IMG/VR virus record: IMGVR_UViG_2734482594_000019
Source: a virus
Taxonomy: Duplodnaviria; Heunggongvirae; Uroviricota; Caudoviricetes
Direction: 5' to 3' (one strand)
DNA: 7,425 nt
Positions 405 through 2,207 of this stretch are shown here, piece after piece; position 1 is the first letter of the stretch; the number at the start of each line of letters is the position of its first letter. Under the pieces are notes generated by a model. It was not told the DNA's origin and made no database searches. It saw only the letters and a program-made list of their open reading frames with translations. Made by a program: the position numbers and the translations under genes.

Positions 405-656
405 TTAGTCCTGATTTTTATCCACCCTGAGTAGTTCGCGCAGAGCAAAGGCATCCCCTTTTCTGGCAAGCTTAAACAATGCCGCTCGTAACTCGGCTTC
501 ACCTTTCGCTCTGCCCTTACGGATGGCCGCATAAAAATCTGTCATTGCTTCCCGATTTTCTTTCAGTCGGTTCAGATCAACATCCAGAACGTCAGCGATT
601 TGTTGTGCAGTCATCCGGCACGCTGCCAGAGACTCGACTTTCGAATACGGAATCAT
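405..656 (-). CDS. Small helix-turn-helix protein (83 aa), function unknown; immediately upstream of TerS
   Basis: ATG at 656-654 with SD GGGGGTGA about 5 nt upstream; stop TAA at 407-405, 3 nt before the TerS ATG. HTH-like segment SLAACRMTAQQIADVLDVDLNRL. Tightly packed between the neighbouring genes on the same strand. Confidence 0.6.
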   Translation of the reverse strand: MIPYSKVESLAACRMTAQQIADVLDVDLNRLKENREAMTDFYAAIRKGRAKGEAELRAALFKLARKGDAFALRELLRVDKNQD

Positions 657-659
657 TTG

Positions 660-1412
660 TCACCCCCATTGNNNNNNNNNNNNNNNNNNNNNNNNNNNNN
701 NNNNNNNNNNNNNNNNNNNNNNNNNNNNNNNNNNNNNNNNNNNNNNNNNNNNNNNNNNNNNNNNNNNNNNNNNNNNNNNNNNNNNNNNNNNNNNNNNNNN
801 NNNNNNNNNNNNNNNNNNNNNNNNNNNNNNNNNNNNNNNNNNNNNNNNNNNNNNNNNNNNNNNNNNNNNNNNNNNNNNNNNNNNNNNNNNNNNNNNNNNN
901 NNNNNNNNNNNNNNNNNNNNNCCACAGCGACCGAGATTCGTGTACGTATTCACATCCTCGTTAATGCGCCCCATGAATGAGAACGGTCGATCAACCGAAC
1001 AGATAAAGCTGTTCATTGCCTTGCGTTTCACCCACGAAGCATGGCCGCCATTGTCACCAAGAAAATCCCCGCCCTGCGACATAGCGATGGAAAGAGCAGG
1101 TATTGATTCGTAGTACGCAAGCATTTCAGAAAGGATCTCATCCAGTTTCCTTATCGGGAAATAGGCCTGGTCATAGTTGCGATCCACCCGAAACTGGAAC
1201 TCGTGATAATCATCATNNNNNNNNNNNNNNNNNNNNNNNNNNNNNNNNNNNNNNNNNNNNNNNNNNNNNNNNNNNNNNNNNNNNNNNNNNNNNNNNNNNN
1301 NNNNNNNNNNNNNNNNNNNNNNNNNNNNNNNNNNNNNNNNNNNNNNNNNNNNNNNNNNNNNNNNNNNNNNNNNNNNNNNNNNNNNNGCCCGTGAGTCAGA
1401 ATAAAGGCGCAA
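660..1412 (-). CDS. Hypothetical phage protein, interrupted by two masked runs; true 5' end not determinable
   Basis: The visible stretch 922-1216 is open in one frame (DDYHEFQFRVDRNYDQAYFPIRKLDEILSEMLAYYESIPALSIAMSQGGDFLGDNGGHASWVKRKAMNSFICSVDRPFSFMGRINEDVNTYTNLGRC). A stop TGA at 662-660 lies 3 nt before the next gene. The TTG at 1412 used by the ORF track is probably not the real start. Frame continuity across the N runs cannot be verified. I do not recognise the family. Confidence 0.4.
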   Translation of the reverse strand: MRLYSDSRXXXXXXXXXXXXXXXXXXXXXXXXXXXXXXXXXXXXXXXXXXXXXXXXXXXXXXXXXXDDYHEFQFRVDRNYDQAYFPIRKLDEILSEMLAYYESIPALSIAMSQGGDFLGDNGGHASWVKRKAMNSFICSVDRPFSFMGRINEDVNTYTNLGRCXXXXXXXXXXXXXXXXXXXXXXXXXXXXXXXXXXXXXXXXXXXXXXXXXXXXXXXXXXXXXXXXXXXXXXXXXXXXXXXXXXXXQWG

Positions 1413-1418
1413 AAATCA

Positions 1419-2207
1419 TCACGCATATTCCTCCTCCCCGCCATGCATGATCTCCACCATGCGCTGCGTCATTCGGACAAATCCATTTTCAATAGCCTGC
1501 TGATAATCAATGATCACCAGCGCCGACTCCTCGAAAAGGCACTGAATTTCAGCGGGGGCATGAGCGTAATAGTCCGCAATTCTGCTGAAATTAAACACCG
1601 TGTGACGTTCTGCTGCACACAGGAGGAATTTCTCAATATCAGGATCAAGGGACGCCGAACGTATCCGGCTGATCAGCTCCTGAGTTTTCGTATCGTCGTA
1701 CAGTTCACTGATATCCGGTTTACCGCCTGACGGCTCATAAACAGGCGTATCAATTTTCGTCGTATACGGCTCCTCCTCATTTCCTGTACCGGGCAAAACA
1801 TCCGTCAACAGTTCATCAATTTCTGCCGGGATGAAGCCTGTCAGGGAGACATCAAAATCAGCATTGATTAGGTCCGACAGCTCCATCCGCAACAGATCTT
1901 CATCCCAGCCAGCATTCATCGGCAGGCGATTATCTGCCAGGCGGTACGCCTTTTTCTGCTCATCCGTCAGGCCAGACAGAACAATGACCGGAACAGAATC
2001 CATTTTGAGCATTTCAGCCGCCATAACACGACCGTGACCCGCAATAATTTCGCCCTTTTCGTCAATCAGCACCGGATTAGTCCAGCCGAATTGCTTAATA
2101 CTTTCTACCAGTTGTGCCACCTGCTCAGTACTGTGCGTCCTGGCGTTGTGCGCATACGGTGACAATTCTTGTAATGGGCGATAGACTATCTTTAATTTCT
2201 CGCTCAT
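1419..2207 (-). CDS. ParB/Srx-fold (ParB-like nuclease N-terminal domain) protein with a strongly acidic C-terminal domain, 262 aa
   Basis: ATG at 2207-2205, stop TGA at 1421-1419. N-terminal about 95 aa (KIVYRPLQELSPYAHNARTHSTEQVAQLVESIKQFGWTNPVLIDEKGEIIAGHGRVMAAEMLKMDSVPVIVLSGLTDEQKKAYRLADNRL) looks like a ParB N-terminal domain. C-terminal about 167 aa has roughly 35 Asp/Glu against about 10 Lys/Arg. From memory, the truncated K-12 Rac gene ynaK next to trkG corresponds to the N-terminus of this protein; I have not verified this. Confidence 0.8.
   Translation of the reverse strand: MSEKLKIVYRPLQELSPYAHNARTHSTEQVAQLVESIKQFGWTNPVLIDEKGEIIAGHGRVMAAEMLKMDSVPVIVLSGLTDEQKKAYRLADNRLPMNAGWDEDLLRMELSDLINADFDVSLTGFIPAEIDELLTDVLPGTGNEEEPYTTKIDTPVYEPSGGKPDISELYDDTKTQELISRIRSASLDPDIEKFLLCAAERHTVFNFSRIADYYAHAPAEIQCLFEESALVIIDYQQAIENGFVRMTQRMVEIMHGGEEEYA

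Follow-up and report, generated by a model that had tools for sequence, protein, structure and literature searches.

The window, by which we mean the whole 7,425-nucleotide stretch analysed here, carries on its minus strand the gene order trkG, a 262-aa ParB-like protein, a masked gene, an 83-aa HTH protein and the terminase small subunit (TerS). The trkG gene occupies positions 2345–3820 and forms the upstream flank of the ParB-like gene (1419–2207), which is followed by the masked gene (approximately 592–1426, a span compressed by the masks), the basic HTH protein (405–656) and TerS (1–401), of which the window edge leaves the first 133 codons of a 364-aa protein. The ParB-like and middle genes overlap by 8 nt, the middle and HTH genes overlap by 65 nt and only 3 nt separate the HTH gene from TerS. 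The full TerS protein, taken from E. coli EC2, matched PF03592 Terminase_2 (3.8e-8) and phrog_51 (7.1e-75). A sequence-only reading of this DNA had described a three-gene module between trkG and the terminase, in a late-operon position beside the packaging genes, and all of the features it described are present. Between trkG and the ParB-like gene, a pattern scan located a terminator-like hairpin on the minus strand (2235–2258, 10 pairs of which 7 are G-C, followed by TGCGTTTTAT), and found no promoter-like site between trkG and the ParB-like start. GC content drops to 33–41% in trkG, a low-GC moron, compared with 47–50% across the module, where the GC of the ParB-like and TAGT genes equals that of the backbone.

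The masks lie at 672–921 and 1217–1386, and their N runs do not preserve length: in genomes identical to the window over the unmasked parts, 250 N replace 254 nt and 170 N replace 264 nt. A 250-aa open-reading frame listed at 660–1412 is a masking artefact, because the masks shorten the sequence. We read the middle gene from E. coli genomes identical to the window over the unmasked stretches, inside the masks it is thus the sequence of these relatives, in which the gene is 933 nt long (310 aa). The unmasked parts of the gene (592–671, 922–1216 and 1387–1426) are 100% identical to EC2.

Of 5426 complete E. coli genomes, 783 (approximately one in seven) contain at least 80% of positions 1–2400 of the window, whilst any match to this stretch is found in 1628 genomes, with many prophage copies truncated. 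All that remains in the K-12 Rac prophage is an 87-aa ynaK fragment joined to ydaY, consistent with the earlier statement that K-12 holds fragments only. The three genes exhibit dN/dS values of 0.08–0.13 (0.115 for the whole ParB-like gene, 0.133 for the middle gene and 0.077 for the HTH gene), indicating purifying selection.

The masked gene and its glycosyltransferase family

The EC2 protein, which does not differ from the window wherever the window is unmasked, matched PF20691, the family of TET/JBP-associated glycosyltransferases (TAGT), with an E-value of 3.7e-34 and 118.9 bits (cut-off 27.5), aligning residues 8–222 with positions 4–205 of the 205-position profile, and matched phrog_842 at 7.5e-104. 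No NCBIfam match was found for this protein or for the HTH protein, and a PDB sequence search returned nothing for the former. Across 16 sequences sharing 60–82% identity, R14, D38/D41, D102-D103-D104 and N187-E188-D189 are invariant; these residues match the DNA-GT motif R...DDD...ED[Y/F], with V190 in place of Y/F and an invariant Y193. On this profile and motif evidence the masked gene encodes a TAGT-family glycosyltransferase with intact GT-A catalytic motifs, and not the methyltransferase, PAPS reductase or nuclease that had been considered for the middle protein.

The T2/T6 beta-glucosyl-HMC alpha-glucosyltransferases and the MT-TET-GT 5hmC glycosyltransferases share the Pfam family, PHROG, GT-A motifs and phage origin of this TAGT, and the characterised phage TAGTs all act on DNA, where sugars are put on bases. 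The known TAGT systems differ, however, in that no TET/JBP dioxygenase, alpha-/beta-GT or hydroxymethylase stands alongside the gene here. Recent papers describe hundreds of phages with a "solitary" TAGT, without a known route to the acceptor base, and a 2026 NAR paper treats the solitary TAGT group, to which the present gene belongs, as functionally undefined. Two other roles were considered and rejected. Neither TarP-like wall-teichoic-acid modification nor O-antigen seroconversion fits a module that is shared by viruses of Gram-negative and Gram-positive bacteria and of archaea and is present in a virulent phage, and capping DNA ends with sugar would conflict with the need to ligate cos ends.

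To our knowledge, every characterised TAGT requires a hydroxylated or already glycosylated base, which counts against DNA glycosylation by this enzyme. Neither a TET/JBP dioxygenase nor a thymidylate-synthase-type hydroxymethylase is annotated in the EC2 Rac-type prophage, and neither type of enzyme is annotated in the 38.7-kb record of vB_EcoS-666R9 (which ends in tail genes) or in the 31.8-kb phage c5, these three having been checked completely or almost completely. Around the divergent loci, the precomputed Pfam matches on record include no TET/JBP or hydroxymethylase, and a Pfam scan of selected unannotated hypothetical proteins from Rac and c5 gave no TET_JBP match. Pyle et al. regard glycosyltransferases without an adjoining 5mYOX or ThyS gene as less likely to be DNA-modifying, and GREB1, a member of the same family as TAGT, is known to glycosylate (O-GlcNAcylate) a protein.

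The ParB-like protein and its acidic partner domain

Residues 1–135 of the ParB-like protein (1803–2207, minus strand) are predicted by AF2, Foldseek and profile matches to form a ParB NTP-binding domain followed by two or three helices, with an AF2 pLDDT of about 85–92. The protein matched PF02195 ParB_N (8.7e-7, 29.3 bits, above the gathering cut-off of 26.3) and, over its full length, phrog_620 (1.7e-90), and homologues of ~260 aa are found across Enterobacterales. The ParB/Srx N-terminal domain noticed earlier is therefore borne out, with its motif IIAGHGRV at residues 54–61. Key residues of the NTP-binding domain are N21, R23, S36, GHGR60 and N93, of which N21/R23 and N93, like S36 and R60, are conserved. 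In the profile alignment GHGR aligns to Box II GERR, with R60 as the second R, H58 replacing E and G59 replacing the first R, and the best Foldseek matches of the domain are Noc, ParB-CDP/CTPgammaS and KorB (E-values 4e-7 to 1e-5). The TIGR00180 score was 38.1 bits, under the cut-off of 58.45, the AF2 model contains no HTH domain and no parA gene is annotated in the EC2 prophage. Judged by sequence and model, the 262-aa protein is not a canonical partition ParB, as neither the central HTH nor the ParA partner was found.

Phage DNA methylases begin with a region that shares 40–53% identity with the N-terminal 140 residues, and 530 phage records contain matches; the domain also matches phrog_498 and PADLOC MTase_II, the latter being the sole PADLOC match. 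These similarities place the ParB N-domain in the subclass that is fused to phage DNA methyltransferases. The methyltransferase fusions have a similar N-terminus and the same position ahead of terminase genes, but in them ParB is joined directly to a catalytic domain, whereas here an adaptor-like domain takes that place and a separate, though translationally coupled, protein is the enzyme.

Residues 136–262 (1422–1802, minus strand) comprise an acidic linker and a helical C-terminal domain, which together we refer to as the TAGT-partner domain. The linker, predicted to be disordered around the invariant Y148 and Y157, contains the invariant motif PYTxKIDTPVYEPS (residues 147–160), and the helical domain, which is confidently predicted and highly conserved, carries FLLxAAERHTVFNF and LFEESALVIIDY. 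This C-terminal domain is the most constrained part of the protein (omega 0.076 vs. 0.149 for the N-terminal domain). Searches of Pfam and of structures gave no match to the partner domain, a small helical domain whose fold has not been described before. The pI of the partner is 4.1, and so strongly acidic a protein would be odd in a DNA-bound complex, which counts against the reading that we favour below.

Net charge over residues 99–262 is −24, close to the value of about −25 given by the sequence-only reading, and this acidity is conserved (median −25, range −22 to −28, in 33 homologues sharing 55–91% identity). The acidic DNA-mimic anti-restriction proteins Ocr and ArdA have a very low pI and phage origin in common with the partner domain, which, unlike them, exhibits sequence-specific conservation and strict linkage to a glycosyltransferase gene, and has no similarity to them in fold. 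No DNA-mimic fold or charge pattern was found in the acidic region, and with its invariant motif and a helical domain tied to TAGT it is probably not the DNA mimic that had been proposed.

A gene encoding the partner domain directly precedes the TAGT of this clade in 107 of 107 loci examined. The adjacency holds in all 84 close loci and all 17 more divergent IMG/VR loci, as well as in phi jlb1, c5, the archaeal virus HHTV-2, Porphyromonas phage005b, Nocardia NTR1 and Vibrio pv27, and the pair is found in Lactobacillus, Porphyromonas, Nocardia and haloarchaeal viruses. The overlap between the two genes is 4–41 nt, the exception being pv27, where they are separated by an 8-nt gap. The partner domain holds its position even without the ParB N-domain: stand-alone copies of 130–142 aa, located outside packaging modules, precede TAGT in pv27 and in four of four long metagenomic contigs. 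Because these stand-alone copies precede TAGT, it is the C-terminal domain rather than the ParB domain that is tied to the enzyme, and gene neighbourhoods identify the acidic C-terminal region as the dedicated genomic partner of the glycosyltransferase. The TAGT of this module always occurs with its partner, whereas the T4-like member examined, from Aeromonas phage 65, is without one. No fusions of ParB or the C-terminal domain with TAGT were found among the 149 best representatives, the lone seeming fusion (P0241) appears to be an out-of-frame chimera. A survey of the ParB fold (PNAS 2025) makes no mention of a glycosyltransferase partner.

The HTH protein and the terminase

The 83-aa HTH protein matched phrog_309 (terminase small subunit) at 8.3e-23 over profile positions 145–218 of 319, and is homologous (E-values of about 1e-4 to 1e-5) to the first ~80 residues of 127–165-aa TerS proteins, which follow the ParB-TAGT pair in environmental loci and in phage phi jlb1. 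It ends where the homologous TerS run on for 45–85 residues more, is without the TerS oligomerisation core and C-terminal TerL-binding segment, and is followed by the separate 364-aa TerS. The Porphyromonas phage TerS gave no direct match to it and belongs to the same family transitively only, and a PDB sequence search with the HTH protein gave chance matches only. The 83-aa length is kept in other genera at 58–70% identity, and because of this conservation the 69-aa start assigned by PGAP is probably too far downstream. The protein is absent from two of the loci, L005 and L006. Its homologies mark it as a small-terminase-type N-terminal DNA-binding domain, which travels with TerS and not with the ParB-TAGT pair. 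The idea of three genes acting as one module therefore survives for the ParB-like and TAGT genes, whilst the HTH protein belongs with the terminase.

A possible ParB-tethered glycosyltransferase

We favour, at about an even chance of being right, a ParB-tethered, two-subunit, late-expressed DNA glycosyltransferase. The ParB-like protein and TAGT would be made together from their overlapping genes on a Q-dependent late transcript, just before the terminase. The C-terminal partner domain would bind TAGT, and the ParB domain, gated by nucleotide, would keep the complex on double-stranded phage DNA. Glycosylation of this DNA would come after its replication and either precede or accompany packaging, and the sugars would shield it from host nucleases. 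That the two proteins form a complex, that it acts on DNA at this stage and that restriction is thereby countered are our inferences; the DNA-glycosylation reading as a whole is supported by the family identity, the invariant motifs, the adjacency, the selection, the ParB subclass, the precedent and the expression context. An anti-restriction role for the ParB-TAGT module is plausible, by a different mechanism from that proposed in the sequence-only reading.

The precedent comes from O'Toole et al. (PNAS 2026), who found that phage ParBs activate a DNA-modifying thymine dioxygenase specifically on dsDNA; the same study linked glycosyltransferases with a ParB-independent dioxygenase clade, and cites Iyer et al. 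(2013) for ParB genes in hypermodification clusters. In ParB176, which occurs with 5mYOX176, residues N14, R16, S29 and R56 correspond to N21, R23, S36 and R60 of the 262-aa protein, with three spacings exact and R60 three residues off. The predicted layout also agrees with the published description of ParB176: the NTP-binding domain is followed by helices, a disordered linker of ~35–50 aa and a C-terminal domain, and a DNA-binding HTH is lacking. Both proteins have an enzyme of DNA-modification type as neighbour, often with terminase genes close by, but the partner enzyme is a glycosyltransferase here and a dioxygenase for ParB176; no 5mYOX dioxygenase adjoins the 262-aa protein, the neighbouring gene is always TAGT.

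TAGT may instead glycosylate a protein and not DNA, acting on its partner (for example at Tyr148/Tyr157, in the manner of glycogenin) or on a virion or packaging protein. We consider this unlikely, yet it would account for the lack of an annotated hydroxymethyl-base source in any genome checked and, as overlapping genes for substrate and enzyme, for the strict adjacency; the two invariant tyrosines in their predicted disordered segment and the activity of GREB1, from the same Pfam family, also fit. It is harder to reconcile with a partner fused to a ParB domain of the DNA-methyltransferase subclass, with the DNA-acting nature of all characterised phage TAGTs and with a highly conserved, folded helical domain that a simple acceptor peptide would not need, and where the ParB domain is absent the pair has no constant structural-gene neighbour. 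A DNA-mimic function of the acidic region, with the ParB-like protein packaged and injected against restriction or defence and TAGT incidental or auxiliary, seems improbable to us, as does its variant in which the mimic holds TAGT inactive until loaded onto DNA; the conserved charge of −24 over 164 residues and late expression beside the head genes speak for it, the TAGT linkage and lack of a mimic fold described above do not.

The genomic position of the pair invites a further explanation, which we hold to be similarly doubtful, that the ParB-like protein works with TerS/TerL at pac/cos, where it would recognise the site or serve as a nuclease helper, and that TAGT modifies a packaging-relevant target. 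The pair lies directly upstream of TerS/TerL in Enterobacterales, Lactobacillus, Porphyromonas, Nocardia and environmental phages, directly after the cos site in phage c5, and is followed by the TerS-type HTH protein in Rac. The earlier suggestion of ParB as a terminase helper is weakened, however, because, where the partner lacks ParB, it and TAGT lie in replication modules at a distance from any terminase. The L005 pair follows a gene with weak resemblance to a portal gene and no TerS is detectable around it, the HHTV-2 pair is 3 kb from TerL, the ParB fold has no nuclease motif, and the ParB-methyltransferase fusions share the genomic position yet are not packaging proteins. We regard it as very improbable that the pair has no function at present in E. 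coli and is a passenger decaying in Rac-type prophages: K-12 keeps just its fragment, PGAP marks the gene as partial in EC2 and truncation of prophage copies is frequent, at least 80% coverage being reached in 783 of the 1628 matched genomes, but the low dN/dS, the intact open-reading frames and catalytic motifs, and the conservation of the module across bacterial phyla and an archaeal virus all argue for function.

The module could also work without an oxidised base, if the partner lets TAGT place a sugar on a canonical base or the backbone of DNA, or itself takes the sugar on an invariant tyrosine, so as to become a glycogenin-like glycoprotein that the ParB clamp would load onto DNA, although we think this a rather unlikely route. 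We know of no such direct transfer to a canonical base or backbone in DNA chemistry. Either outcome, if true, would be a modification system that is new and widespread among viruses of bacteria and archaea, represented by >1000 sequence clusters.

What is new here is a TAGT clade that always occurs with a partner domain of its own, not described in any database, and the finding that this domain is often fused to a ParB module which is also attached to phage DNA methyltransferases. As an intact module is present in Rac-type prophages, the question of the solitary TAGTs becomes directly testable in E. coli. If DNA is the target, the module would provide post-replicative glycosylation independent of a TET enzyme or hydroxymethylase, with a bearing on restriction evasion, phage therapy and sequencing artefacts in prophage DNA, and would extend the emerging idea of ParB-fold switches that escort DNA-modifying enzymes.

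The middle gene and its prophage setting

Every gene of the window is encoded on the minus strand. In transcription order, the C-terminal end of a Q-like DUF1133 protein comes first; it is followed by two genes with TolA domains (5365-5760 and 5848-6342), a lysis cassette of holin, endolysin and Rz/Rz1, trkG (2345-3820), the 262-aa ParB-like gene (1419-2207), a partly masked middle gene (1426 down to 592), an 83-aa ORF for an HTH protein (405-656) and the first part of the gene for the small terminase subunit (TerS; 1-401). By sequence match, the region belongs to Rac-type prophages that occupy the E. 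coli ttcA site, with matches in 1628 of 5426 complete E. coli genomes and at least 80% of positions 1-2400 matched in 783; induced phages, e.g. vB_EcoS-666R9, match it as well. K-12 Rac retains only an 87-aa ynaK fragment fused to ydaY, in keeping with the sequence-only reading that fragments survive there; this fragment (K-12 locus, L169:5378-5641) is the ParB N-domain alone, and a 2026 over-expression screen reported 3- to 6-fold higher MICs of six antibiotics with it (PMC12924614).

Comparison with E. coli EC2, a strain showing 100% identity to the window over 1-671 and 922-1216, reveals that the masks do not preserve true lengths: 250 N at 672-921 stand for 254 nt, 170 N at 1217-1386 for 264 nt, 265 N at 5879-6143 for 262 nt, 263 N at 6498-6760 for 250 nt and 56 N at 7072-7127 for 292 nt. 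A reading frame that crosses a mask therefore has no meaning in window coordinates, and an ORF listed at 660-1412 was rejected as a masking artefact. With the first two EC2 lengths restored, the middle gene comes to 933 nt (310 aa), and all analyses of it were run on the EC2 protein, the window copy being readable at its unmasked parts only. In EC2, PGAP labels the intact 262-aa ORF a partial ynaK pseudogene (L002:11048-11305) and sets the HTH start at codon 15 (L002:9405-9614), giving 69 aa; the 83-aa form is conserved across genera.

Among the remaining genes, the TolA-type gene at 5365-5760 combines a signal/lipobox-like N-terminus with a TolA C-terminal domain (PF06519, E 1.3e-14) and the one at 5848-6342 is a tolA fragment according to PGAP; both might act as decoys against TolA-using colicins or filamentous phages. 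A 61-aa, proline-rich Rz1-type lipoprotein ORF (3999-4184, minus strand) lies out of frame inside the Rz gene (3940-4416, minus strand), an ordinary spanin arrangement. trkG is a low-GC moron (33-41% GC vs. 47-50% in neighbouring genes) with its own terminator-like hairpin (2235-2258, minus strand); a Yersinia prophage (L007:2180-3332) carries heat-labile enterotoxin LT-II-like A and B genes (PF01375, PF06453) in the same slot.

The sequence-only reading had proposed searching the unmasked middle protein for methyltransferase, PAPS-reductase-like or nuclease motifs; recovered in full through EC2, it is instead a TET-associated glycosyltransferase (TAGT), covering the full PF20691 profile (E 3.7e-34) and matching phrog_842 at 7.5e-104. 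Its invariant residues among 16 homologues sharing 60-82% identity (R14, D38/D41, D102-D104 and N187-E188-D189) correspond to the R...DDD...ED[Y/F] signature known from phage GT-A DNA glycosyltransferases and from the base-J glucosyltransferase of trypanosomes. The E. coli Rac TAGT carries ca. 20 extra C-terminal residues (592-656, minus strand), absent from the ~288-aa homologues of other genera.

A partner domain tied to the glycosyltransferase

The ParB-like gene lies directly upstream of the TAGT gene in all 84 loci related to the E. coli type and in all of another 17 divergent contigs from environmental phages; there, identity is 54-61% for the TAGT and 36-53% for the ParB, the latter across both domains. 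The same pairing occurs in Lactobacillus phages phi jlb1 and c5, haloarchaeal virus HHTV-2, a Porphyromonas phage and Nocardia phage NTR1. Tight coupling, as the sequence-only reading described it, holds for this pair, which overlaps by 4-41 nt at about a dozen annotated or gene-called loci with readable ends (Vibrio phage pv27, with an 8-nt gap, is the exception), and for the middle and HTH genes, where the C-terminal extension of the TAGT overlaps the HTH start by 65 nt.

The decisive observation for the pair as one unit is pv27, in which a 139-aa protein upstream of the TAGT matches the linker and C-terminal domain only (E 4.5e-45); it encodes no ParB domain, and none is annotated in the 6-kb flanks. 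This locus (L160:5459-6888) encodes a TAGT with a 37-aa N-terminal extension, and a helicase gene is next. Stand-alone partner domains of 130-142 aa are common and directly precede the TAGT in four of four long contigs, within replication modules; Aeromonas phage 65 has a T4-like TAGT with no such domain beside it. What is tied to TAGT is therefore the acidic C-terminal region, to which one large branch has added the ParB module. Against one relative (ParB about 80%, TAGT 88% identical), dN/dS was 0.076 in the C-terminal region and 0.149 in the N-domain of the ParB-like protein; TAGT gave 0.133 and HTH 0.077.

The predicted ParB/Srx N-domain and strongly acidic C-terminal part were both borne out. 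Residues 1-98 form a ParB/Srx NTP-binding domain (Pfam profile, AF2, Foldseek), with GHGR60 aligned to the Box II GERR motif, N21/R23 to Box I and N93 to Box III. Residues 1-144 share 40-53% identity with phage DNA methyltransferase N-termini (matches in 530 phage records) and roughly 13-22% with partition ParBs and related solved structures, placing this part, on alignment, much nearer the former. The net charge of residues 99-262 is -24, conserved in homologues; AF2 predicts helices at 103-134, disorder at 136-169, containing the near-invariant PYTxKIDTPVYEPS, and a helical C-terminal domain (core 156-225, pLDDT 82-98 with 79 diverse sequences as input) with the conserved motifs FLLxAAERHTVFNF and LFEESALVIIDY. 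At 50% identity, the family falls into 1194 clusters. Two divergent partner copies (1422-1802, minus strand; L160:5459-5878) give the same weak, sub-threshold match to PF23887 (Phage L5 gene 47-like; E 0.04-0.05, same helix), which may reflect distant relationship or chance.

Possible roles of the pair

O'Toole et al. (PNAS 2026) reported that phage ParBs, alike to the 262-aa protein in architecture and conserved residues, activate their cognate thymine dioxygenase specifically on dsDNA, and in phage DNA methyltransferases ParB modules of the same subclass are fused to the enzyme. By analogy with both, the 262-aa protein would tether and/or activate the TAGT on phage DNA, late in infection. 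We infer DNA as the target with about even confidence. Characterised TAGT-family members in T2 and T6 add glucose to glucosyl-5hmC, and those accompanying phage MT-TET pairs put glycans on the 5hmC made by these. Annotation shows no TET/JBP dioxygenase or hydroxymethylase anywhere in the EC2 prophage, in the 666R9 record (38.7 kb) or in virulent phage c5 (31.8 kb), and the divergent loci examined have none near the pair, so the usual TAGT acceptor is not provided. The main rival is protein glycosylation, possibly on the partner's invariant tyrosines; GREB1, a eukaryotic family member after which PGAP names the middle gene ("GREB1-related protein"), O-GlcNAcylates a protein.

The acidity had also suggested a DNA mimic, a reading now weakened as conservation is residue-specific, fold similarity is lacking and linkage to TAGT is strict. 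A purely packaging role for the pair, including a ParB-like protein that assists the terminase, is likewise weakened by loci without a terminase neighbour. The ParB-like, middle and HTH genes do adjoin, as the proposed three-gene module had it, but the HTH protein belongs with the packaging genes: its PHROG match is to a small-terminase family, it can be aligned with residues 1-80 of the TerS proteins (127-165 aa) downstream of ParB-TAGT in other phages, and it co-varies with Rac TerS, being missing where that is missing. Downstream of the pair in one further locus, the large terminase subunit (L097:7368-9587) has an intein splicing domain match (PF14890) marginally below gathering (35.7 bits vs. 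a cut-off of 35.8).

Solitary TAGTs had already been noticed and listed as functionally undefined, and O'Toole et al. (PNAS 2026) cite a 2013 report of ParB genes in hypermodification clusters. In the searchable literature, a scope outside which that 2013 paper falls, no account was found of a dedicated TAGT partner domain or of its being independent of the ParB module. What would be new relative to the known solitary TAGTs is a dedicated partner domain, separable from the ParB module.
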